Below, in pieces: positions 310-48,177 of a stretch of 64,000 nucleotides of DNA (position 1 is its first letter; each line of letters begins with the position of its first letter). Where the stretch lies: positions 128 to 64,127 of the forward strand of contig CAJGDG010000002.1 in the NCBI GenBank assembly GCA_904502095.1, given 5' to 3'. The position numbers and the translations under genes are program-made. The notes beneath the pieces were generated by a model. It saw only the letters and a program-made list of their open reading frames with translations, had not been told where the DNA came from and ran no database searches. The DNA is from an uncultured Alphaproteobacteria bacterium. GTDB taxonomy: Bacteria > Pseudomonadota > Alphaproteobacteria > Rs-D84.

Positions 310-2283
310 ATGAAATTATTTAAGCGATTTTTATTGTTGGTTTTCTGCGCACTGCCGACCTTGGCGGTGGGGCAGGTTGCAACCACCGCGGGCAGTAATT
401 TAACCGCATGGAACGGTAATGCGGGGTCTACAAATAACAATAATTGGAACCAATTAATGAACAATCGTACCGGCGCGGCCACTGCGGCCAAGGCTGATTT
501 CGGCAACTGTAATTCATTGATTTTACGCTGTGCGCAACCAAAATGTGCTGCGTGTACAACAATGGAATTGGCGAAACCTGTTGTGTCGGGTTGTGTAAAT
601 TCGAACAAAGATTGTAAAAAACACGGTGATGATTTGATTGAATTTATCGCTGCGCAAATTGTTGCAAGTGCCGCACAAAAACAACAGGCGGCTGAATTGG
701 CGGCGTCCCAGGCCGCGGCCCAGGCGGCGGCTGCGCAAAATTCCCAACAAATGCAACAAATGCAAATGCAGATGCAGCAAATGCAACAGCAAATGCAACA
801 ACAAAACGCCAATCAGATGGCGCAAATGCAGGCTGCATTGGATGAACAAAAACAATTGGTTGCCCAGGCCCAGGCCGAAGCGGCCGCCGCCCAACAGGCC
901 AAGGCGGATGCAGAAAACGCCAAATCCGCGGCACCGGTTGGGGTGACCGCTGCGCAACAGAATGCGATTAACGCCGGGATCAGTGAAGATGTTTTATTCC
1001 GTCAACAGGCCAGTGGCGAAATCTTGACTGCGATTGAAAATGCAGAGGTGCAGTTAAAGGCGATGGAAACATCGTTAAAATCGTTGTTCGATTATGCGGG
1101 CTGTGATTCGCGTGGTGGAAACTGTGTTGGGCCAAAGCGGGTCAAGGTTTTTAAAGACAAAGCGCGCCCGATTTTTGACAATTTTGATAATGTCGCAGAC
1201 GAATTGTATGAAGCGTTGGAAACGGCGCTGATGCTGGGCGTTGATGTCAGCGATGTTTTAATGATGTTAAATGGTTCGTGTAATCGTTGGGGTCGTTATA
1301 TGTGTCAATCAGATGGTATTTGCACCGACGAAAACAAAGGTTGTACGAAGGGACAACCGTATCATGAGGTTGCAAAATATGATAGCAGCTCTTGTGTTGG
1401 TGGTAAGTCTGTGGCCATCGGCAATGTTAGAGGAAACATGGAATGTCGTGAAAAAACTGCTGTCCCTCCCCAGGACGATATTCGTTGCACAATGATTGGA
1501 TACTTTTCGGCTGATGATACCGATGAGGTTCGTCGTGAATGGATTGATGAAAATTACGAAGGTGACCGTATGGTGCGAATTGGGTGTGCGTCTTCGGCGT
1601 TGGATTCTATTGGCATCTTTTCGCGCCGCCGTGGCAAAAAGGCCAGTACGCTTGATTTGGATACGTTGGAACGCATTTTGGAACAAGACGCAACGGATAT
1701 GGGGGGCAGCAGATATAACGATAAAACCGTGCGCGACAATGAAAAATTACAATACTGTGCATTAAGTGTTGATGGATACAGAATTTTAAACAAAGCTATT
1801 AATACAAAAAAATTTAGTCAAAGCGATGTTTGTGTTGAAACGGCTGATTTGCGTAGCGATGTGCGAAATGGAAATTGGGTTCGCGCACTGGACAGTGATT
1901 CTGGGCGCTATTTAAACCATATCCCCGAAGCGTATGACAAAGGCTCATGCGAAAAGTTGGGAGAAAATCAAGCCTGTTGGGAAGAGGGGACCAAAAAGTG
2001 TTGGGTGCGTAAATGTAATAGCGGTAATTGTAGCGTTGCCACTGCGTGTACGGGGGAATGTGGAACCAATGAATGTGGTATGTGGAACTATTGGAATGGC
2101 GGAACGGTTGTGACGGTTGGTGCCAACGATAACGAGAACAAATGTAAAATGCATGGACATATATGGTATAGTAAGGATCAGCTAGCAGCAAATAAATTTA
2201 CAAACCAAGAAGCGTGCTGTAAGCAAAATGGAAACGGTCATTTTGATACTAATTTGGGGAAGTGCGTGCCTGCAAGCGGATGA
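310..2283 (+). CDS. Secreted Cys-rich protein with a Gln/Ala-rich coiled-coil region (hypothetical, 657 aa)
   Basis: Signal peptide MKLFKRFLLLVFCALPTLAVG; 31 Cys; low-complexity QQMQQMQMQMQQMQQQMQQQ; GAGAG SD upstream; no enzyme motif recognised. Confidence 0.75.
   Translation: MKLFKRFLLLVFCALPTLAVGQVATTAGSNLTAWNGNAGSTNNNNWNQLMNNRTGAATAAKADFGNCNSLILRCAQPKCAACTTMELAKPVVSGCVNSNKDCKKHGDDLIEFIAAQIVASAAQKQQAAELAASQAAAQAAAAQNSQQMQQMQMQMQQMQQQMQQQNANQMAQMQAALDEQKQLVAQAQAEAAAAQQAKADAENAKSAAPVGVTAAQQNAINAGISEDVLFRQQASGEILTAIENAEVQLKAMETSLKSLFDYAGCDSRGGNCVGPKRVKVFKDKARPIFDNFDNVADELYEALETALMLGVDVSDVLMMLNGSCNRWGRYMCQSDGICTDENKGCTKGQPYHEVAKYDSSSCVGGKSVAIGNVRGNMECREKTAVPPQDDIRCTMIGYFSADDTDEVRREWIDENYEGDRMVRIGCASSALDSIGIFSRRRGKKASTLDLDTLERILEQDATDMGGSRYNDKTVRDNEKLQYCALSVDGYRILNKAINTKKFSQSDVCVETADLRSDVRNGNWVRALDSDSGRYLNHIPEAYDKGSCEKLGENQACWEEGTKKCWVRKCNSGNCSVATACTGECGTNECGMWNYWNGGTVVTVGANDNENKCKMHGHIWYSKDQLAANKFTNQEACCKQNGNGHFDTNLGKCVPASG
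745..806 (+). repeat. Imperfect CAAATG/CAGATG microsatellite-like tract inside the CDS (encodes the QM repeats)
   Basis: caacaaatgcaacaaatgcaaatgcagatgcagcaaatgcaacagcaaatgcaacaacaa. Confidence 0.8.
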
Positions 2284-2287
2284 AACA

Positions 2288-3031
2288 ATGGTTAATAAAA
2301 AAAGTATCTTTTATGGTTTGATTGTGGCGGTGTTTACGGCTGTGTTTGTTATGCCGTCTTTTGCCGCAGATGACTCCTGTATGAGCGAAGATAAGGATAT
2401 GATTGCCGCGCCGTTCGCAATGTGTTCAACACATGCCTATAATATCGGTAAGACGGAAAATCCCGATTCCGCTGACCGCGCACTGATGAAGGAAGTTATT
2501 GGTTTGAAAACAACCTTTTTTACCCAGCAATTGTACAAGCAATATGATCAACTGGAATCGATGGTGCGTCGATTGAAAACGCAATTAAAAAAGGCGGTGT
2601 TAACGAATAATCTGAAAGCAGCCGGCGCAAAATCTGAAAAAGATGATGACAGTGGTTCTTCTTATTCTGCGTCCAAGGACGATTATGTTCAGATTTCTGG
2701 TGCAAAAGATTGTACAACTTCGTGGTCGAAAAAAGAGATTTTCGATTGTTTGGCGGGAAATTATATTCTTATCAAAAATGGCGACAAGTCAACTGCATAC
2801 AAAAAGCAACTGAAAACGGATTATAATTTGGCGTGTAAAAATGTTGCTGCAGACGATAAATGTTCGGATACATATAAATGTAAGAAATCTATCAGCGGCA
2901 ATAACTTTTCTGAATGTTTGAATGATTTATATAGTCTTATTGTTGCCGGTAAAGAAGCCGCCGCAGATACGGAAGCAAAGCGAAATAACCCGTTTCAACA
3001 TCTGATGAATAATAATAATAGTGGAAGCTAA
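2288..3031 (+). CDS. Secreted 8-Cys hypothetical protein (247 aa)
   Basis: In-frame ATG 5 nt after the upstream stop; signal peptide MVNKKSIFYGLIVAVFTAVFVMPSFAA; followed by a terminator. Confidence 0.7.
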   Translation: MVNKKSIFYGLIVAVFTAVFVMPSFAADDSCMSEDKDMIAAPFAMCSTHAYNIGKTENPDSADRALMKEVIGLKTTFFTQQLYKQYDQLESMVRRLKTQLKKAVLTNNLKAAGAKSEKDDDSGSSYSASKDDYVQISGAKDCTTSWSKKEIFDCLAGNYILIKNGDKSTAYKKQLKTDYNLACKNVAADDKCSDTYKCKKSISGNNFSECLNDLYSLIVAGKEAAADTEAKRNNPFQHLMNNNNSGS

Positions 3032-5273: not shown

Positions 5274-7283
5274 ATGGCAGATAAAACGTTTGTTCAAAAT
5301 CGTGGCGATAGTGTTCGGTTGTTTGCAGACAGAATAAAAAAAATGCGTAAAGCTACTGTTGGTCAACAGGTGCCTGATACCGTTCGGTGGAACGAAATTG
5401 CCAATGTGTCGCAAGATGAAAAAGGTGATAGAAAATTAGAAATCGATTTGGATAAGTTGGGCGTCTGGTTAAAAGAAAATGCGCAACAGGGAAAAAAGTG
5501 GACGCAGGTTTCGGCTTTGTGGGTGTCTGAATATTTGACGCGCGCAATAAATAAATTGATGGTGGATAATGGGCTGTTGCGCGGGGGTGAATTTGCTTTT
5601 GAAAAAGGCGCCAAGTTGTCCGAAAATATTAAAAACAAGGAAGGCAAAAAAATCGGAGAAACATTCGTTTCGCGCATTGTTAAAAATCGCCCTTGGGTGT
5701 TCAGCTATTTGATGTATTATTTGATTGCAACAACCTTTGTCGCGGGCGCTGTAAAAGAACCCGTGCCAGAACAAGACAAAGAAGAAGTAAAAAAAGAAAA
5801 TGTCGAAAAAGAAACCGACTCTGTGCCAGAAAAAGAACAAGATAAGTTCGAAAACTTTGTCCTGAATCCAAACGCGTCAGAAGAAGAGTGGCAAAAACAA
5901 ATTGATGCTGTGCAACCCTATGTTTTGTCTCATATATTTTCCACCGAAGGCTATATTAAAAAGGCTTATTTTGATGTGGGAGCTTCTTCGGGTACATTGA
6001 CTTTTGGTGCCGGGTTTACAATTGCAGACAGACAACATCGCAGTTTTGCATCCAAGATATTAGGGCGCAAATTGGGGAATGGTTCGGAAATCTCGATACA
6101 AGAAACAAAGATTTTGGTAGACGCGTGGATGCGTGAAAAGGTTTACCCGCCAATGAAAAAAGCGTTTAAAAAACCTTTGCCTGCCAGATTGTTTGTGGGA
6201 TTGGCTGTGGCTGCATATAATGCAGGCGAAAGCACATATACTCTGGCGGGAAATTCGGGCGTGCCAGTAGTAGAGGCTGTAAACGCAGGCAAAAGCATTC
6301 AGGAAATTGTCGATGTGTATGTGCGCGCCTATGGGAAACAACGTGGAACCCAATGGGGCGGTATGCCAAATAAATACGGTGTGTGTGCGCTGTATATGTT
6401 GGGGCATATTTCTGAAAAGGCTATTTTAGAATCTGTTGGTGAAGCGCCCTATACAATAGAGCCGTTTGTTGCAGCTGTACAGAAACAGGATAGTTCTTTT
6501 AACGAACGGAATATGGTCCAGGGGCGTTTGTTGGTGTATGATGGAAATGCAAAAGAATCAAAGCCAATCGGGGTTAAATATTATGATAATCTTGATGGTA
6601 TGTTGACTAAAACAAAGTTCCGCAAAACCAAAGGTACAGTGCAACTGCCTGTGCAGGAATATTTTAGCACCCAAGAAGTTAAAACTATGTTGGCTGGAAA
6701 TTTGTTCCAGGGCAAGACTGCGGATTTTATGCGAGAATTTAATAAAAATGTTGTCATAGAACAAAGCGAGTCTGAAAAGCTTAACGAAGAGGGTGAATTC
6801 TTGTTCGTAGAAGGCAAATATGCCGATGCAGAAAAGAAGTTTAAAGCCGCAATAAAAGCCGATAAAAATAACTATATTGTTTATAGCAACTTGTCTATTT
6901 TGTATTATCATATGGGACGTTTTGACGATGGGTTAAAGATTGTTCAGAGCTTGATAAATTCTGATAAAATGAAATCTGTGCCAGATGAAATAAAGTCTTA
7001 TACATATTATAATGCTGCGTTGTGCCGTGAAGGTTTGGGCGACAAGGCCAAGACAAAGAAGCAAAAGCAAGAACACTATAAATTATCAGAACAAAATTTA
7101 AAGCTGTCTGAAAAGTATAGCGGTACAGAACACGGCATGCTTAAACAAAGACTGAAAGAAAAAATGAATAATCTGTCTGCAAAAAAACAGGTTGTCGCTT
7201 TTAATGACGGAATTAAAAAAATGGAATCTAAAAAAATACTTCAAATTAACAACAGGGATTTTTCAAATGAAGGTATATGTTGA
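5274..7283 (+). CDS. Membrane-anchored lysozyme-like protein with C-terminal TPR repeats (669 aa)
   Basis: One TM helix (WVFSYLMYYLIATTFVAGAV). T4-lysozyme-like motif STEGYIKKAYFDVGASSGTLTFGAG with E-9-D spacing. TPR-like YSNLSILYYHMGRFDDGLKIV. ATG lies 2 nt after the mucR stop. Confidence 0.5.
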   Translation: MADKTFVQNRGDSVRLFADRIKKMRKATVGQQVPDTVRWNEIANVSQDEKGDRKLEIDLDKLGVWLKENAQQGKKWTQVSALWVSEYLTRAINKLMVDNGLLRGGEFAFEKGAKLSENIKNKEGKKIGETFVSRIVKNRPWVFSYLMYYLIATTFVAGAVKEPVPEQDKEEVKKENVEKETDSVPEKEQDKFENFVLNPNASEEEWQKQIDAVQPYVLSHIFSTEGYIKKAYFDVGASSGTLTFGAGFTIADRQHRSFASKILGRKLGNGSEISIQETKILVDAWMREKVYPPMKKAFKKPLPARLFVGLAVAAYNAGESTYTLAGNSGVPVVEAVNAGKSIQEIVDVYVRAYGKQRGTQWGGMPNKYGVCALYMLGHISEKAILESVGEAPYTIEPFVAAVQKQDSSFNERNMVQGRLLVYDGNAKESKPIGVKYYDNLDGMLTKTKFRKTKGTVQLPVQEYFSTQEVKTMLAGNLFQGKTADFMREFNKNVVIEQSESEKLNEEGEFLFVEGKYADAEKKFKAAIKADKNNYIVYSNLSILYYHMGRFDDGLKIVQSLINSDKMKSVPDEIKSYTYYNAALCREGLGDKAKTKKQKQEHYKLSEQNLKLSEKYSGTEHGMLKQRLKEKMNNLSAKKQVVAFNDGIKKMESKKILQINNRDFSNEGIC

Positions 7284-9261
7284 TATCCATGATAAACGGT
7301 GGAAGAAATATAAAATAGATTTTGAAAAAATCGCCAATACGGCGGTTTCTGGCGTATACAAGAATTCTGAAGTGTCGATTGTTTTGGTCGATGATGATGA
7401 GATTAAGTCGATAAATCGTCAATATCGTGATATCGATAAACCGACAAATGTTCTGTCTTTTGAATTGGGCGATGATGTTCTGTTGGGGGATATTTATATA
7501 TCTTTGGATACTGTCGTGCGTGAAGCCCGCAATATGAATATTTCTGTGCACGACCATGTGGCGCATATGGTGGTGCATGGGGTGCTGCATCTGTTGGGAT
7601 ATGACCATATTACTGATGAAGAGGCCGCTGTTATGGAATTAAAAGAAACCAAGATTTTGAAAAAGATGAAAATAAAAAATCCATACGAAGAAGATGTAAT
7701 TGCCTGTGTTGATGGAGATTGTTGCCCAGGCGCTAAAACAATTGCGTGGTTAAAAAATATAAAAGTTCGTGAAAACGGATTTTTGCAATATTTGCTGTAC
7801 GGCGTATTTGGTGCTGTTGCGTCATTGGGGTTTGCGCCTTTTTATCAATGGTGGTGGACGCTGATTGGGGTTGCTGGTGCGTATTGGTTGACGGTGCGAA
7901 ACAAAAAGATTGGCGGTTTGTTGCACAGCTTTTTACGCGTGTTTCCGTTTGGGGCAATGTATGGGTTGGCTATGTTTTGGTGGGTCTTGCATTCTATTTA
8001 TGTTGCGCCAGAACTGGCGGCACAATATGCAATATGGACAGTACCCGGTGTGTTAGGATTGATGTTGGCAAGCGGGGTTATTTTTTCGTGGCCATTTGTC
8101 GCAATCGCAAATAAAAAAGCATCGCCTGCGTCACGAATATGGTTGTTCGCATGTGTCTGGGTGTTGGTTTTATGGATGCGCGAATGGGTGTTTACAGGGT
8201 TTCCGTGGAATCCAATTGCAAATATAATGATGCCATTTCCGGCGATTGCTAATTCTATGTCTGTTTGGGGGGCGTTGGGATTAAGTTTTGTGCTTGTTGG
8301 ATTAATTGCTGCTGTTGTTGAATTGTTGCGTAATATAAAAAGTAAATCTGTGTGGTGTGTTTTGTTGTTGTTCGTTGGGTTTGCTGTATACGGCGGATTT
8401 GCTGGTGTACATAATATGGCGTTGTCGGATAATGGGGCAGGTACAGATGCGACAATGTTGCGTATTGTTCAGCCTGCATCATCGCAATCACAAAAAGCAA
8501 CCCATAACAGAGCCGAAGCTTTACAACGTGCACAGTTTAACTTGAAATCATTAATGGATTTGGCAAGTGTTCCGGGTGAATATGATATTGTCATTATGCC
8601 TGAAACAACATATCCGTTTGTTGTTATGGATACAGATATTATTGATATGGCGATTGATTTGAAAAAGCCAGTTGTTTTTGGGGCAAATACAGTTGGCGCA
8701 GGTGGTGTTTATAATTCTATGGTGATTTCCTCGGAAAACGGCCGTATAGAAAGAATTTATAGCAAGTCGCATTTGGTCCCATTTGGCGAATATCGTCCAT
8801 TTGGTATATTGCCTGCGCCCGTTAATTTAGCGCGTGGAAATGGACCTGATTTGATTGGTGTCGAAGGTTTTGTTTTTGCGCCAGCTGTTTGTTATGAAAT
8901 TATATTTTCTGATTCATTGTTGCCGGAAAATTCAGGCGAAGTTCACGCGGTTGTAAATATTACAAATGACAACTGGTTTGGCAATACCCCTGGGGTTTAT
9001 CAGCATTTAGATATGGTGCGCAGATATGCGATTGAATCTGGTTTGCCTGTTGTGCGCGCTAATTATTCTGGTATCAGTGCATTTGTTGCGTCCGATGGTG
9101 AAATAATATCGTCTTTGCCCGTTGGTCAAGCTGGTGTGTTGGACGGTTTTGTTTGGGGGGCACATAAAACAATTTATCGCGCAATTGGTTTAAATATGTG
9201 GATGATAATTATATTAATTGTGTCGATTTTTGGTGTGCGTGCCTTTTCAAAAAAAGAATAA
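7267..9261 (+). CDS. ybeY/lnt: Fusion of endoribonuclease YbeY (N-terminal ~140 aa) and apolipoprotein N-acyltransferase Lnt
   Basis: YbeY zinc motif HMVVHGVLHLLGYDH, then polytopic Lnt with catalytic E (MPETT), K (KSHLVPFGEY) and C (VCYEIIF) in one uninterrupted frame. Start at MKVYVD with AGGGA SD. Confidence 0.85.
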   Translation: MKVYVDIHDKRWKKYKIDFEKIANTAVSGVYKNSEVSIVLVDDDEIKSINRQYRDIDKPTNVLSFELGDDVLLGDIYISLDTVVREARNMNISVHDHVAHMVVHGVLHLLGYDHITDEEAAVMELKETKILKKMKIKNPYEEDVIACVDGDCCPGAKTIAWLKNIKVRENGFLQYLLYGVFGAVASLGFAPFYQWWWTLIGVAGAYWLTVRNKKIGGLLHSFLRVFPFGAMYGLAMFWWVLHSIYVAPELAAQYAIWTVPGVLGLMLASGVIFSWPFVAIANKKASPASRIWLFACVWVLVLWMREWVFTGFPWNPIANIMMPFPAIANSMSVWGALGLSFVLVGLIAAVVELLRNIKSKSVWCVLLLFVGFAVYGGFAGVHNMALSDNGAGTDATMLRIVQPASSQSQKATHNRAEALQRAQFNLKSLMDLASVPGEYDIVIMPETTYPFVVMDTDIIDMAIDLKKPVVFGANTVGAGGVYNSMVISSENGRIERIYSKSHLVPFGEYRPFGILPAPVNLARGNGPDLIGVEGFVFAPAVCYEIIFSDSLLPENSGEVHAVVNITNDNWFGNTPGVYQHLDMVRRYAIESGLPVVRANYSGISAFVASDGEIISSLPVGQAGVLDGFVWGAHKTIYRAIGLNMWMIIILIVSIFGVRAFSKKE

Positions 9262-13276: not shown

Positions 13277-14862
13277 GAAATGGTTTGTCAAAAGATTTAA
13301 TCGTACGCGTTTTGGGCGGCGCACCAAAATATACATTGGATGAATTAGAAGCAAAATTCCCAGCACGCAATTTGCCAGAAGGTGCAATGGTGACGCGTGT
13401 TGCACCAAGCCCGACTGGTTTTATGCATTTGGGTACATTGTATCAAATGATGATTGCAAAAAAATTAGCACAACAATCAGATGGTGTTTTTATGTTGCGT
13501 ATTGAAGATACTGATACAAAACGTGAAGTGCAGGGCGCAGTTGATGTTATTTTAAAATGTGCAGATGCGTTCGGGTTGCAACCAGACGAAGGCCCGACAT
13601 ATGGTGGCGAATATGGTTCTTATTATCAATCGCAACGCAAAGATATTTATCATTCTGTGGTGGCAGACTTGTTGGCGCGTGGATTGGCGTATCCTTGTTT
13701 CTTGTCAGCAGAAGATATGGAAAAAATTCGCGAAAATCAAAAGGCAGCAGGTTTTGCAACAGGTATCTATGGCGAATTTGCACGTGATAGGGATTTGACC
13801 GAAGAAGATATTATCGCACATTTAGATAATGGTGAAGTGCCATCGATTCGTTTGTATTCAATGGGCAATAAAGAAAATAAAATATTTTATAATGATAAGG
13901 TTCGTGGACGTTTGGCGTTCCCAGAAAACGAAGAAGATATTGTTTTGATTAAATCAAATGATGGGTTGCCAACATATCATTTTGCACATTTGTGTGATGA
14001 CCATTTTATGCATACGACATTGGTACAACGTGGTGAAGAGTGGTTGTCTTCATTAAATTTACATTTGCAATTATTCCGTATGATGGGATGGCAAAATCCA
14101 GAATATATCCATGTTGCAACAATTAACAAACTGGATGAACAAACTGGTAATTCGCGCAAACTGTCCAAACGTACAGACCCAGAAGCAAATACAATGCATT
14201 ATTTGACAGCTGGTTGGCCAATAGAAGCCGTATTGAATTACCTGTACAATATTGTTGCGTCTGGTTTTGAAGAAGAAAAAAATAAAAAGCCAGATACAAC
14301 TATTTGGAATTATCCATTAAGAGTAAAAAAAATTCCAACAAGCAGTGCGTTGTTTAATACTGATAAACTGGAATGGTGGGCGAAAGAATTTATTGGTTCG
14401 TTGCCGGTGCCAGAATTGGTTGCACGTGTGGTCGCATGGGCAAATGAATATGGAACGGATGTCAACAAAATGCAGGTGGCGGATGTTCAATATCTGACAG
14501 GCGTGTTGGGTATCGAACGCGATAATCCAAAGCGTGTGCGTAAAGACTTTATTACTTGGTCCCAGACATTGGAAAATGTTGCGTTCTTCTGGGATGAATT
14601 GTTTGTTCCAAATACAGAATATGAATTTAATAGGGACGTGTTGCATGAATTTTTGGTAACATATAACGAATCGGATGATAAAGACACTTGGTGGGCTAAA
14701 ATTGTAGCGGTTGCAGAAAAATGTGGTGTTAAAAATGGCGATGTTGCAATGAATCTGCGTGTTGCGTTATCTGGCCGTACAAATACCCCAGACTTGTATT
14801 CAATAATGACTGTTATGGGTGGTGAACGCGTAATTAAACGAATCGAGGGAGCGATAAAATGA
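13273..14862 (+). CDS. gltX: Glutamyl-tRNA synthetase
   Basis: Class I motifs PSPTGFMHLGT (HIGH-like) and KLSKR (KMSKS). ATGA overlap with the GNAT stop. Confidence 0.88.
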   Translation: MRNGLSKDLIVRVLGGAPKYTLDELEAKFPARNLPEGAMVTRVAPSPTGFMHLGTLYQMMIAKKLAQQSDGVFMLRIEDTDTKREVQGAVDVILKCADAFGLQPDEGPTYGGEYGSYYQSQRKDIYHSVVADLLARGLAYPCFLSAEDMEKIRENQKAAGFATGIYGEFARDRDLTEEDIIAHLDNGEVPSIRLYSMGNKENKIFYNDKVRGRLAFPENEEDIVLIKSNDGLPTYHFAHLCDDHFMHTTLVQRGEEWLSSLNLHLQLFRMMGWQNPEYIHVATINKLDEQTGNSRKLSKRTDPEANTMHYLTAGWPIEAVLNYLYNIVASGFEEEKNKKPDTTIWNYPLRVKKIPTSSALFNTDKLEWWAKEFIGSLPVPELVARVVAWANEYGTDVNKMQVADVQYLTGVLGIERDNPKRVRKDFITWSQTLENVAFFWDELFVPNTEYEFNRDVLHEFLVTYNESDDKDTWWAKIVAVAEKCGVKNGDVAMNLRVALSGRTNTPDLYSIMTVMGGERVIKRIEGAIK

Positions 14863-15596
14863 CCAAGGAAAAAAGAGCCAGAATCAAGGCCGTAAAAAAA
14901 GACGAGCATGGTTCAAAGTTGTTAAAGGTTTTGCGTGCAACAGGGTTGTTCCGTTGGGAAAAGCCAAGTACCAAAGCAGAAGAATCGGTTAATATTTTAA
15001 CACAGGGTATTGGTATCGGGTTGGCGGTCGCAGCGTTAACATTATTGGTTGTGTTTGCGGGGCTGAAAGGTGACCCATGGGCAATCGTTTCGTGTGCGAT
15101 TTTTGGCGTGACGATGATAACTTTGTATTTTGGTTCAACAATGTGTCATGCAACAATCGGTAAAAAGCACGAGTGTTTCTTTGAAGTTTGGGACAGCGTC
15201 GCAATTTATGCCCTGATTGCAGGAACCTATACGCCGTTTTTGTTAGTAAATCTGCGTGGTTTTATTGGCTGGACTGTGTTTGCGATTTTGTGGGGAATTG
15301 TATTGTTTGGTTCTTATATGAAAATTCGCAATCCAAAACAACAGCCAAAATGGATGGTGGCATTATATGTTGCGATGGGGTGGACGCTGTTATTTATTTT
15401 GCCGGCAATGATTCGTAATATTCCAGTTCGTGGTCTGTGGTTTATCTTAGCCGGTGGGCTGGCGTATACAATCGGTGTAATATTTTATCTGTGGCGCAGG
15501 ATGAAGTTTTCACACGCGGTATGGCATTTATTCGTAATTGGCGGCAGTGTGTGTTTCTTTTTTGCTGTTTTGTTTGGTTGTATTTTTGATAAATGA
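14859..15596 (+). CDS. Hemolysin III / PAQR family membrane protein
   Basis: Seven predicted TM helices; C-terminal HAVWHLFVIGGSVCFF signature; ATGA overlap with the gltX stop. Confidence 0.8.
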   Translation: MTKEKRARIKAVKKDEHGSKLLKVLRATGLFRWEKPSTKAEESVNILTQGIGIGLAVAALTLLVVFAGLKGDPWAIVSCAIFGVTMITLYFGSTMCHATIGKKHECFFEVWDSVAIYALIAGTYTPFLLVNLRGFIGWTVFAILWGIVLFGSYMKIRNPKQQPKWMVALYVAMGWTLLFILPAMIRNIPVRGLWFILAGGLAYTIGVIFYLWRRMKFSHAVWHLFVIGGSVCFFFAVLFGCIFDK

Positions 15597-15600
15597 CAAG

Positions 15601-15625
15601 AAATCCGCCGTATGGCGGGTTTTTG
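15601..15625 (+). terminator. Rho-independent terminator
   Basis: AAATCCGCC-GTAT-GGCGGGTTTTTG directly after the stop at 15596. Confidence 0.75.
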
Positions 15626-15654
15626 TTGACTTTTATCTCATGTGGTAATACTAT
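15626..15654 (+). promoter_or_regulatory. Sigma70-type promoter TTGACT-17-TACTAT
   Basis: TTGACT (15626-15631), a 17-nt spacer, TACTAT (15649-15654). The leader ATG lies 7 nt downstream. Confidence 0.6.
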
Positions 15655-15661
15655 ATAAATC

Positions 15662-15718
15662 ATGAATTTGTTTAAAATTATCTTTACTACAACTACTACA
15701 ACCCCTTTGGGGGTGTAA
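15662..15718 (+). CDS. Candidate thrS leader peptide MNLFKIIFTTTTTTPLGV (18 codons, six consecutive Thr)
   Basis: ATG AAT TTG TTT AAA ATT ATC TTT ACT ACA ACT ACT ACA ACC CCT TTG GGG GTG TAA. The ORF lies 77 nt upstream of thrS. The last Thr codons form the left arm of the hairpin ACAACCCC-TTT-GGGGGTGT. Confidence 0.55.
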   Translation: MNLFKIIFTTTTTTPLGV

Positions 15719-15795
15719 TTTCTATTGCGGTGGTCCGCACAAATTTCTATAATAAATCAGTTAAAAAAATAAATAAAAAGTAAAGGTATTTTATT

Positions 15796-17529
15796 ATGTC
15801 TTATGATATTGAAATAATTCGTCATTCGTTGGCACACGTTATGGCGGCGGCTGTTAAAAAATTGCACCCTGATGTTAAATTCGCAGGGGGGCCAGCAATC
15901 GAAAATGGTTTCTATTATGACTTTGATACAGAATATCGCTTTTCCGAAGAAGATTTTGCAAAAATCGAAAAGGAAATGCGCGATTTAATTAAATCAAACG
16001 GTCGCTTTGAACAACGCAATGTTTCTGTTGATGAAGCCAAAGAAATATTCGCAAATCAGCCATACAAAATGGAATGGTTAAATGAATATGATGCCGCAGG
16101 CGAAGCGTTGTCTGTTTATGCTTTCCGTGATTTTGTTGATTTGTGTCGTGGTCCGCATGTGGAAAGTTCCAAAGACTTGCCAAGGGATGCGTTCAAAATC
16201 CGCAGTGTGGCCGGTGCATACTGGAAAGGAAATGCAAAAAATAAAATGCTGCAACGCATATATGTTGATGCGTTTGCCAGCAAAGAAGAATTGGACGCGT
16301 TCCTGAAAATGCAAGAAGAGGCTGCTGCGCGCGATAATAGAAAACTGGGGCGCGATATGGATTTGTTCCACTTTGAACCTGATTATGCGCCGGGGTCTGT
16401 TTTCTGGCATGACAAGGGATATAAAATTTATCGCAAATTGATAGAATACTTGCGTGCACGCCAGGAAAATGCTGGCTATATGGAAATTTGTACGCCTGCG
16501 GTTATGGACAGATGTTTATGGGAGCGCAGTGGTCATTGGGCAAAATATGGTGAGCATAATTATTCTGGGAAAACCCAAGATGGTAAAACATTTTGTATAA
16601 AGCCTATGTCTTGTCCGGGCGGTATGTTGGTGTTTGGTCATGGTATCAAGTCTTATAAAGATTTGCCTATGTATGTTGCGGAATTCGGTAAGGTTTATCG
16701 TTATGAAGCAGCGGGTGGTTTGTCCGGGCTGATGCGTGTGCGCGAGTTTACGCAGGATGATGCGCATATATTCTGTACAGAAGAACAGTTGGAATCAGAA
16801 GTTGTAAAGATTTTAAAGTTTATCAAAGATATTTATTCAAAGTTCGGCTTTGATAATATTTCAATGAAGTTGGCAACGCGCAAGGATTCTGAATTTCGTA
16901 TAGGTTCTGACGAAATTTGGGACAAGGCAGAAGGGGCATTGAAACATGCGCTGGATGCAAATGGAATTGAGTACGAGATTGCCGAAGGCGATGCAGCATT
17001 TTATGGCCCAAAGATTGATAATTATTTGAAAGATTCAATGGGGCGCGTATGGCAGTGTGGGACCGTGCAATTGGACATGAATTTGCCAGAACGATTCGAT
17101 TTGTCTTATGTTGGTGAAGATGGTGAAAAACATCGCCCAATTATGTTGCATCGTGCTTTGTTAGGGTCTATCGAACGCTTTATGGGCGTGCTGTTGGAAT
17201 CAACGGGGGGGCATTTGCCACTGTGGTTGTCGCCAGAACCGGTTGTTGTCACACCTATTTCTGAAAAGCATGCGGATTATGCAAACGAAGTTGTGGCCGC
17301 ACTACGTGGTGCCGGTGTAAATACACGTGCAGATTTGCGTGATGAAAAAGTGAACTATAAAATCCGTGAATTGTCGCTGGCAAAAACACCAATCGTTGCA
17401 GTTGTTGGCGAAAAAGAAATGGCTGATAAAACTGTGACATTGCGCAGACTGGGTGAACAAAAACAGGAAACAATTCCATTGGCAGAATTTGTTCAAATGA
17501 TGCAAGATGCAATTAAAATGCCATTGTAA
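15796..17529 (+). CDS. thrS: Threonyl-tRNA synthetase (577 aa, no N-terminal TGS domain)
   Basis: Starts in the editing domain (IIRHSLAHVMAAAV). Class II motifs FTQDDAHIF and HRPIMLHRALLGSIERF. Confidence 0.92.
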   Translation: MSYDIEIIRHSLAHVMAAAVKKLHPDVKFAGGPAIENGFYYDFDTEYRFSEEDFAKIEKEMRDLIKSNGRFEQRNVSVDEAKEIFANQPYKMEWLNEYDAAGEALSVYAFRDFVDLCRGPHVESSKDLPRDAFKIRSVAGAYWKGNAKNKMLQRIYVDAFASKEELDAFLKMQEEAAARDNRKLGRDMDLFHFEPDYAPGSVFWHDKGYKIYRKLIEYLRARQENAGYMEICTPAVMDRCLWERSGHWAKYGEHNYSGKTQDGKTFCIKPMSCPGGMLVFGHGIKSYKDLPMYVAEFGKVYRYEAAGGLSGLMRVREFTQDDAHIFCTEEQLESEVVKILKFIKDIYSKFGFDNISMKLATRKDSEFRIGSDEIWDKAEGALKHALDANGIEYEIAEGDAAFYGPKIDNYLKDSMGRVWQCGTVQLDMNLPERFDLSYVGEDGEKHRPIMLHRALLGSIERFMGVLLESTGGHLPLWLSPEPVVVTPISEKHADYANEVVAALRGAGVNTRADLRDEKVNYKIRELSLAKTPIVAVVGEKEMADKTVTLRRLGEQKQETIPLAEFVQMMQDAIKMPL

Positions 17530-48057: not shown

Positions 48058-48177
48058 ATTATTCTAATTTATTTTCCGCTAATCACGGGGTATGGCGGTG
48101 CGTGTTTTTTGCCAAAATATTTTAGTTTATTTTAATGTTAATTAAACGCGCTTTGTTTAACATGTTGATTATACTTC

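Follow-up and report, generated by a model that had tools for sequence, protein, structure and literature searches.

Directly upstream of thrS, the gene for threonyl-tRNA synthetase (ThrRS), in a 64,000-nucleotide stretch of an uncultured, Candidatus Enterousia-like gut alphaproteobacterium of the order Rs-D84 (contig CAJGDG010000002.1; hereafter the window), lies a short open reading frame (ORF) with a run of six threonine codons. Judged from comparative sequence data, this ORF behaves as a translated, Thr-sensing leader linked in cis to thrS, and it very probably serves that gene as a cis-acting sensor of Thr-tRNA. The original prediction, made from the letters of the window, had proposed attenuation-type control of thrS by such a leader. 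On comparison with related loci, the Thr-sensing and cis-linked leader stood (occurrence in 55/55 loci, synonymous variation, and linkage to thrS), whereas the classical switch of the thr, his, trp, and pheST leaders did not.

A threonine-codon leader conserved upstream of thrS

Relatives were collected through a ThrRS protein scan of species-representative genomes, which yielded 80 loci. The closest ThrRS relatives (76 to 96% identity) were found in gut metagenome-assembled genomes (MAGs) named Candidatus Enterousia or unclassified Alphaproteobacteria, and a second group, at about 61% identity, comprised long ThrRS proteins with a TGS domain. Genomes of the order Rs-D84 are smaller than 1 Mb and lack amino-acid biosynthesis (PMC12306168). 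The leader ORF occurred in 55 of the 55 Enterousia-type thrS loci with upstream sequence, the window included, and alignment of the thrS upstream regions, a comparison that the original prediction had called for, kept the Thr run in all of these close relatives (55/55). Across the 55 loci, the leader measured 17 to 26 codons (17 to 21 in all but one), its Thr run four to eight, and the encoded peptide followed the consensus M-(K/N)-x-F-x-x-F-F-(T)4-8-P-x-G-V-stop.

Upstream of the ORF, the spacer of promoter P1 was 17 nt long in 54 of 55 loci, and its hexamers, TTGAC/TTGAT and TAnnAT, were invariant or nearly so in alignment A1. In the window, P1 was the sole sigma-70-like match that the promoter scan returned between 15400 and 16000. 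In 54 of 55 loci, the first ATG at least 4 nt past the P1 -10 hexamer opened the frame that contains the Thr run, against a chance expectation of about one third. Because the distance from the -10 hexamer to this ATG was 6 to 10 nt (54 of 55 loci) and no Shine-Dalgarno (SD) sequence preceded it, the leader mRNA is probably leaderless or nearly so, which agrees with what had been suggested for the window; the 5' end is placed here by promoter geometry.

Counting back from the Pro codon, Thr occupancy in slots -1 to -6 was 100, 100, 92, 83, 75, and 77%. In these six slots, codon positions 1 and 2 (AC) were conserved in 79 to 100% of sequences, and from slot -3 through slot -6 any of the four bases occurred at the third position, giving a periodicity of 3 nt. 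A free third base next to two fixed ones indicates selection on the encoded residue. The Thr run is also more than chance. Among ATG-started ORFs of 6 to 40 codons on both strands of the window, 122 had at least four identical residues in seven, and the leader alone reached six in seven; Thr made up 5.5% of codons in 19 window genes. Over the approximately 600 kb of the window and related loci, a promoter followed 5 to 10 nt on by the ATG of a short ORF with an amino-acid run was a Thr leader 51 times and something else once. As to codon choice, the leaders (window 15686-15703 and loci L001 to L055) preferred ACT together with a fixed final ACC, and the window genes used ACA for 55% of their Thr codons. 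Under the usual decoding rules, the leader Thr run would sample more than one tRNA-Thr isoacceptor.

Linkage to thrS was retained in nine loci where the upstream gene is not hlyIII. The leader ORF was absent from 24 of 24 sister-clade loci (approximately 61% identity, long ThrRS), in which thrS stands close behind the upstream gene. Loss of a ThrRS domain goes with the leader: Enterousia ThrRS is without TGS/N1, and the full-length sister-clade ThrRS is without a leader.

The features of the locus are collected in Table 1. P1, the 18-codon ORF, and its six-Thr run were all confirmed where the original prediction had placed them.

Table 1. Features of the thrS control region and flanking genes in the window
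Feature	Position	Strand	Basis or remark
HlyIII-family gene	14859-15596		Pfam HlyIII match
Intrinsic terminator of the upstream hlyIII-family gene	15599..15624	+	Terminator scan; d'Aubenton-Carafa score +12.9, strong T tract; 5' boundary of the thrS control region
Promoter P1: -35 TTGACT (15626-15631), 17-nt spacer, -10 TACTAT (15649-15654)	15626..15654	+	Promoter scan and alignment
Leaderless leader ORF (thrL-like), 18 codons plus stop, peptide MNLFKIIFTTTTTTPLGV	15662..15718	+	ATG at 15662, 7 nt past the P1 -10
Sensor run, six Thr codons ACT ACA ACT ACT ACA ACC	15686..15703	+	
Hairpin 1: A15701-CCCC / GGGG-U15714, loop UUUG	15701..15714	+	Sole RNAalifold consensus helix
U-rich linker GTAATTTCTA	15715..15724	+	Contains the leader stop TAA (15716-18); runs on into the TT of the next element
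Hairpin 2: TGCGG-TGGT-CCGCA	15726..15739	+	Covariation
Promoter P2: -35 TTGCGG (15725-15730), 17-nt spacer, -10 TATAAT (15748-15753)	15725..15753	+	Conserved spacing; overlaps hairpin 2
A-rich spacer and thrS ribosome-binding site (SD AAAGG, 15782-15786)	15754..15795	+	Spacer A 61%, C 12%, G 5% across loci
thrS, ThrRS of 577 aa without N-terminal TGS (N1) domain	15796..17529	+	Pfam tRNA-synt_2b, HGTP_anticodon, tRNA_SAD

Elsewhere in the window, the search for other cognate-codon leaders returned Phe-rich short ORFs at 48135 and 60683, which precede an uncharacterized ORF without a Pfam match and dnaN, respectively, and no synthetase gene. The gltX gene in the window has no leader, and no further aminoacyl-tRNA synthetase (aaRS) gene was present among the window ORFs scanned. 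Positions 7192-9261 of the window hold a single ORF of 689 aa in which a YbeY endoribonuclease domain precedes domains of apolipoprotein N-acyltransferase (LNT_N, CN_hydrolase); it represents either a fusion or a pair of neighboring genes joined in one frame by an upstream TTG start.

Two hairpins, a second promoter, and the absence of a classical switch

Hairpin 1 is built from coding sequence, with the last Thr codon and the Pro codon in its 5' arm, the Gly and Val codons in its 3' arm, and a Leu codon in between. All five pairs (ACCCC/GGGGU, four-nt loop) were invariant in Enterousia, and in 52 of 52 distinct sequences the last Thr codon was ACC and the Gly codon GGG, though synonyms exist for both. 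The constraint on hairpin 1 is at the level of RNA, since in the Bdellovibrionota leaders described below the GGGG arm lies beyond the stop codon and thus outside the ORF. The original prediction had drawn a longer hairpin, ACAACCCC against GGGGGTGT; its core held, and the longer form is obtained only with one mismatch. The T-rich stretch that it had noted after the hairpin is present, and TTTCTAT(T) was conserved in alignment A1.

A run of cognate codons in a short ORF directly upstream of thrS, a hairpin 1 that looked terminator-like in a lenient scan, and the U-rich stretch next to it are what classical ribosome-mediated transcription attenuation would lead one to expect, with hairpin 1 as the intrinsic terminator and stalling at Thr codons favoring an antiterminator fold. 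The original prediction had invoked attenuation as in thr, his, trp, and pheST, and this part of it failed: neither mutually exclusive hairpins nor an intrinsic terminator (55/55 loci) was found. RNAalifold on a 53-sequence alignment returned hairpin 1 and no other consensus helix. When the P1 transcript was divided into eight segments, none of the 28 segment pairs passed the test for cognate-specific complementarity, a test that has power, since on the arms of hairpin 2 it gives p = 2e-9. With no mutually exclusive second pairing conserved, there is thus no antiterminator. Both hairpins had negative d'Aubenton-Carafa scores in all 55 loci, hairpin 1 with a mean of -34 and a T-tract score of 1.7 and hairpin 2 with a mean of -67, compared to a mean of +27 and a T-tract score of 4.7 for control terminators in 19 loci with a positive best hairpin just upstream of P1. 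Either hairpin was accordingly rejected as a canonical intrinsic terminator. In approximately eight loci, the U-rich stretch was moreover displaced from hairpin 1. Rfam leader families (Thr_leader RF00506 and other amino-acid leaders) and the T-box (RF00230) gave no match over 15655-15795, even with E values up to 10; at the gathering threshold, two tRNAs were the only matches in the window, and the Bdellovibrionota and L089 loci gave no match either. Taken together, classical attenuation is distinctly unlikely at this locus.

Regulation could instead act on translation, as in ermC/cat leaders or the mycobacterial polycysteine type, where leader RNA pairs with the SD region and a stalled ribosome frees it. 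Folding the region, as the original prediction had advised, did reveal an alternative pairing in the window itself: the minimum free energy (MFE) fold pairs leader AAAAUUAUCUUUACU with AGUAAAGGUAUUUU at the thrS SD (z = -3.6), and polycysteine leaderless ORFs are described to act in this manner (bioRxiv 10.1101/834739). The pairing was, however, not conserved across loci. Leader:SD duplexes were about as stable in cognate (mean -7.2 kcal/mol) as in non-cognate (-6.9) and shuffled (-7.3) combinations, the SD paired with the leader in the MFE fold of only 19 of 53 loci, and no segment pair showed lineage-specific complementarity. In addition, the leader is wholly missing from transcripts that would start at P2. 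SD sequestration by the leader was rejected on the lack of conserved pairing; the match of an invariant CCCC to purine-rich SDs is itself beyond the reach of covariation. We regard translational attenuation as very unlikely. An E. coli-type operator that mimics tRNA was likewise rejected, as the loops of hairpin 2 vary in sequence and length (4 to 9 nt) and those of hairpin 1 also vary; both hairpins lie more than 55 nt from the SD.

Hairpin 2 was supported by two kinds of evidence. Its arms formed more stable duplexes in cognate (mean -7.3 kcal/mol) than in non-cognate combinations (-5.3 kcal/mol; p = 2e-9). At the pair that includes position 6 of the TTGCNN hexamer, GC occurred 21 times, CG 12, AU 7, GU 4, UG 3, and UA 2, with 27 cells changed on both sides, a count reached in 0 of 500 shuffles, and all slid controls collapsed; these covariation counts use an alignment fitted to a covariance model, which is biased toward structure, and the cognate versus non-cognate arm test is independent of it. 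The original prediction had described this element as a second hairpin before the SD. It is present and covaries, but it is more than that, since in Enterousia it sits inside a conserved promoter, P2, which the first reading had overlooked. Spacing between the P2 hexamers TTGCNN and TATAAT was 17 nt in 46, 16 nt in 7, and 18 nt in 2 of 55 loci, and TATAAT was perfect in 36 of 55. The P2 spacer includes the loop of hairpin 2, and its length is kept even though that loop ranges from 4 to 9 nt. Because the linear distance is constrained independently of the fold, P2 can be read as a promoter at the level of DNA. Transcripts from P2 would be leader-free thrS mRNAs with an A-rich 5' untranslated region of approximately 35 nt. 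Hairpin 2 exists as RNA only in transcripts started at P1, which therefore matter beyond hairpin 1.

The sequence between P2 and thrS carried insertions in two genomes. In one Enterousia-type genome (L055, approximately 2810-2985), some 120 nt of inserted palindromic sequence (GTCATTCCCGCGCAGGCGGGAATAGGG ... CCCTATTCCCGCCTGCGCGGGAATGAC) resemble a mobile element of the miniature inverted-repeat or RPE-like kind, and in another (L034, approximately 2930-2960) a GC-rich hairpin, CCAGGCGGGTTGTCCCGCCGG, interrupts the A-rich spacer.

The same module in other lineages

Wider distribution was assessed with one genome scan, one metagenome scan for a narrow exact pattern, and a dozen follow-up look-ups. 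The metagenome pattern, in which three ACN codons are followed by ACCCC-N4-GGGG and a stop codon, matched contigs 23 times; at two of these matches, the gene immediately downstream was a thrS homologue of another lineage. The shared layout, all of it upstream of thrS, consisted of a leaderless ORF whose last Thr codons, usually in the form ...T-T-P, lead into an ACC-CC/GGGG hairpin, and then of a U-rich linker and a GC hairpin. An Enterousia covariance model matched other phyla weakly (E 0.02 to 0.7) and aligned locus L113 over both hairpins (E approximately 0.05).

This layout preceded thrS in eight of eight Bdellovibrionota loci, including those of B. bacteriovorus (L104, CP168968.1, with the leader approximately 166 nt upstream of thrS) and a Pseudobdellovibrionaceae MAG (55% identity). 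Their leaders had 17 to 21 codons and ended (I/T/L)-T-T-P-stop, except for that of L112, which ended L-T-T-P-P-G-V-stop as in Enterousia. Seven of the eight read ACC ACC CCG TAG/TAA GGGG, so that the loop of hairpin 1 contains the stop codon and the 3' arm falls beyond the ORF. Just two Thr codons, those abutting hairpin 1, were invariant. A -10-like TAnnnT hexamer stood 6 to 7 nt before the ATG in all eight loci, and no SD was present. U-rich linkers spanned 11 to 16 nt and ended U|G, e.g., AATTCTATTTTGCAC in L113, and could come close to that of Enterousia (AAUUCUAUUUUGCAC in L113 versus AAUUUCUAUUUGCGG). From 12 to 16 nt past hairpin 1, a clear local GC hairpin followed in seven of the eight (region fold -7 to -16 kcal/mol) and none was clear in L106. 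In the Bdellovibrionota leaders inspected by eye, a P2-like spacing was not evident. Hairpin 2 is therefore primarily an RNA element, onto which P2 appears to have been overlaid in Enterousia.

Two further features of these loci were observed. Bdellovibrio-type ThrRS proteins are 405 to 425 aa long and miss both N1 and the N2 editing domain; in L084, a Bdellovibrio-like locus whose nearest named relatives are Bdellovibrio spp., the ThrRS (1648-2910, minus strand) has 420 aa, neither N1 nor N2, and no tRNA_SAD match. Five loci (L104, L111, L084, L105, and L110) share an ATTGG(C/T) motif approximately 30 to 40 nt upstream of the leader ATG and before the -10-like hexamer, which may be a Bdellovibrionota -35 region or a regulator site.

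One further lineage (L114) encodes a 604-aa ThrRS preceded by TTGATT-17-TACACT, a gap of 6 nt, and the ATG of a 35-codon ORF ending TSTTTTTTRKG-stop, with six Thr codons; ACCC-GCAA-GGGU forms its hairpin 1, and a second, strong hairpin lies after it. In Patescibacteria, the layout was present in three of five loci; relatives of the Patescibacteria-like L089, namely L107 (FTTTPGGG...) and L109 (STTTPSGG...), have Thr ORFs with the same hairpin. The Thr ORF was missing from the Patescibacteria locus L108 and from a Dojkabacteria MAG (L116), which also lacked a T-box-like element. T-box-like matches upstream of thrS were recorded in L107 (1173-1308, 42.9 bits) and L108 (1011-1280, 27.2 bits), both below the gathering score of 93. 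A T-box-like element followed by a Thr leader ORF, as read from L107, would place two sensors of tRNA charging in tandem.

Recurrence across lineages bears on whether the ORF senses anything at all. A functional micropeptide, or a conserved promoter and RNA architecture with no sensing role, would be in keeping with the conserved hydrophobic N-terminal half and the C-terminal P-x-G-V of the peptide, and two reports on Sinorhizobium describe attenuator by-products (small RNA and peptide) that can act in trans (PMC6614838, PMC7298713). However, both the linkage to thrS and the use of specifically Thr codons recur in unrelated phyla whose peptides are otherwise dissimilar, and the bases of hairpin 1 account for the P-x-G-V tail; the Bdellovibrionota ORF stops before those bases. 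This alternative is highly improbable.

Conservation of the linker bears on a second alternative, in which control is exerted on mRNA stability or processing. Queued ribosomes would protect the 5' end or mask a putative RNase E-type site in the AU-rich linker, and hairpin 2 would be the 5' protective stem of processed thrS mRNA. A single-stranded AU-rich linker between two stable hairpins is conserved in several phyla, hairpin 2 covaries and so acts as RNA, yet without terminator features, and an ORF of 17 to 21 codons is about the length of two ribosome footprints. Against this, a ribosome stalled at early Thr codons would fall short of the linker, and we consider processing unlikely.

The module may unite Rs-D84 Alphaproteobacteria, Bdellovibrionota, Patescibacteria, one further lineage, and possibly the Streptomyces thrL in an unrecognized cross-phylum family, in which, in place of a terminator/antiterminator switch, a waiting ribosome would hold a pause or termination hairpin open and shield the RNA from a termination factor. 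This view is tentative and falls a little short of an even call.

The metagenome scan also led to an unrelated repeat. Six contigs with the OFE prefix (L081, L087, L093, L095, L099, and L101) share a near-identical stretch of approximately 200 nt with ACAACAACCACCCCGAAGGGGGTGGTAA and few base differences; three of them carry it twice, 5.9 kb apart in direct orientation. The stretch is unrelated to thrS and resembles the repeats, terminal or direct, of mobile or viral elements.

A proposed mechanism and its relation to known leaders

The sensing role proposed above can be set in a specific mechanism of elongation and termination for P1 transcripts, which we hold with about as much doubt as confidence. 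RNA polymerase starting at P1 would produce an RNA with the leader AUG as its 5' end, which a 70S ribosome would translate into the Thr run, the last codons of which form the 5' arm of hairpin 1. With plentiful Thr-tRNA, the ribosome would run through, terminate, and leave, hairpin 1 would form, and the G-poor leader RNA would lie naked; P1 transcripts would then be paused or ended early before thrS, probably with a factor (Rho or Nus-type) acting at a hairpin-stabilized pause in the U-rich linker. Such a factor is most likely needed because there is no canonical terminator. With scarce Thr-tRNA, the ribosome would wait on the Thr codons, and whenever one of the last four or five occupied its A site it would hold hairpin 1 open and cover the leader, so that P1 transcription could proceed into thrS. 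P2 would supply basal, leader-independent thrS mRNA, an expression floor in Enterousia. What the comparison of loci establishes is the layout and its conservation, the coding constraint on the Thr codons, the constraint on both hairpins as RNA, and the lack of a terminator/antiterminator switch or of SD sequestration; the direction of regulation, the step controlled (elongation or termination of transcription), the involvement of a factor, and the part played by hairpin 2 are inferred.

Two considerations suggest the direction. The best-conserved Thr codons are those nearest hairpin 1, and a ribosome with the usual footprint that waits at hairpin-adjacent Thr codons must have hairpin 1 unwound. 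To our knowledge, every known control of an aaRS gene, such as the E. coli operator, the T-box, and the pheST attenuator, is homeostatic. Homeostatic logic and the opening of hairpin 1 by a stalled ribosome therefore suggest that hairpin 1 is a negative element removed by stalling. The distance from the hairpin to U|G, 11 to 16 nt, resembles that of a hairpin-stabilized pause, by analogy. The leader ORF had 23% C and 9% G, compared to 18% C and 25% G on the sense strand across the locus, and by C minus G the region ranked among the highest 10% of local windows; a C-rich, G-poor leader and an A-rich, G-poor spacer would suit Rho, which is compatible with the proposal but not diagnostic. No rho gene was present among the window ORFs scanned.

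The opposite direction was also considered. In a reversed, pyrBI-like coupling, transcription would escape pausing or termination only if a ribosome kept pace through hairpin 1; read-through from P1 would rise with Thr-tRNA and fall on starvation, and P2 would be the floor. The single hairpin with an ORF running through it, the stop codon at or past the hairpin, and the presence of a basal second promoter would all fit. This coupling would, however, place a synthetase under positive feedback, opposite to every aaRS control that we know of, and the best-conserved Thr codons adjoin hairpin 1, where a stalled ribosome must hold the hairpin open. It is improbable.

Several points weigh against the proposal that stalling opens hairpin 1 and lets P1 transcription proceed. 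As an intrinsic terminator, hairpin 1 is poor in every one of the 55 loci, and neither RNAalifold nor the segment pairs gave an alternative structure for it to switch with. A ribosome tightly coupled to polymerase would block hairpin 1 under plentiful Thr-tRNA too, and severe starvation should stop it at the first Thr codon, with a footprint that barely reaches the hairpin. Leader-free thrS expression from P2 limits the control that P1 read-through can exert, and approximately 8 of 55 loci have extra bases between hairpin 1 and the U-rich stretch.

Compared with the attenuators of the thr, his, trp, and pheA operons and of E. coli pheST, the Enterousia leader shares a short cognate-codon ORF directly upstream of the regulated gene and, presumably, ribosome dwell time as the signal. 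Unlike these proteobacterial attenuators, it has neither a terminator/antiterminator pair nor a canonical intrinsic terminator, its ORF is leaderless rather than SD-led, its sensor codons form part of the sole conserved hairpin, a second promoter stands between leader and gene, and no Rfam leader matches it. With tnaC-tnaA and other Rho-dependent leaders, it has in common that there is no intrinsic terminator and that a held ribosome would mask RNA needed for termination. TnaC ends Pro-stop, as do the Bdellovibrionota leader ORFs. In contrast, tnaC senses through its nascent peptide together with free Trp at the stop codon, whereas the Enterousia leader would sense hungry codons, and Rho is suggested here by composition only. 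The E. coli thrS operator, a mimic of the tRNA anticodon arm that acts by translational autorepression, and the Bacillus T-box control the same gene with presumably the same logic, more ThrRS at low tRNA-Thr charging; the window differs in having no T-box match and in hairpin loops that are variable and not anticodon-like.

Actinobacterial leaderless leader peptides (thrS, leuS, trpS, and alaS; PMC8079986, PMC1262725) address the same class of targets, aaRS genes. In Streptomyces lividans, thrL encodes MKRVRPFLETTPGFVPAR, an 18-residue peptide that is mapped as leaderless, lies upstream of thrS, and contains T-T-P-G, with one hairpin and no U tract (PMC8079986). The features that define the actinobacterial thrL, leuL, trpL, and alaL type, a start at the inferred 5' end, no SD, cognate codons, and a position directly upstream of an aaRS gene, are all found in the Enterousia leader. 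S. lividans thrL differs in that it belongs to another phylum, has only two Thr codons, and was proposed from the RNA-seq of one genome; the two were compared at the level of the peptide. Some actinobacterial cases, such as leuS, are described as classical attenuators (PMC1262725). Mycobacterial polycysteine leaderless ORFs, with consecutive Cys codons near the 3' end, are cis regulators that respond to the amino acid, and two consecutive codons suffice (bioRxiv 10.1101/834739). Their Cys-codon tract pairs with the downstream SD, whereas the equivalent pairing is not conserved in Enterousia.

Beyond the actinobacterial thrL, which was noted in a single genome, we found no literature on thrS leader peptides. 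Textbook accounts of thrS control describe two strategies, operator mimicry in E. coli and the T-box in Bacillus; a leader peptide would be a third, so far suggested only from one Streptomyces transcriptome. Here, a strongly conserved leader occurs in a genome-reduced gut lineage unable to make amino acids (PMC12306168). As an element without alternative hairpins or a terminator, it points to a simpler and possibly widespread way in which ribosomes signal tRNA charging. Because it is present in B. bacteriovorus, which is culturable and manipulable, the mechanism is directly testable. The nearest described relatives are the actinobacterial leaderless leader peptides of synthetase genes. The sensing principle is thus a familiar one, and what is new is the architecture, the missing switch, the overlaid promoter, and the spread across phyla.

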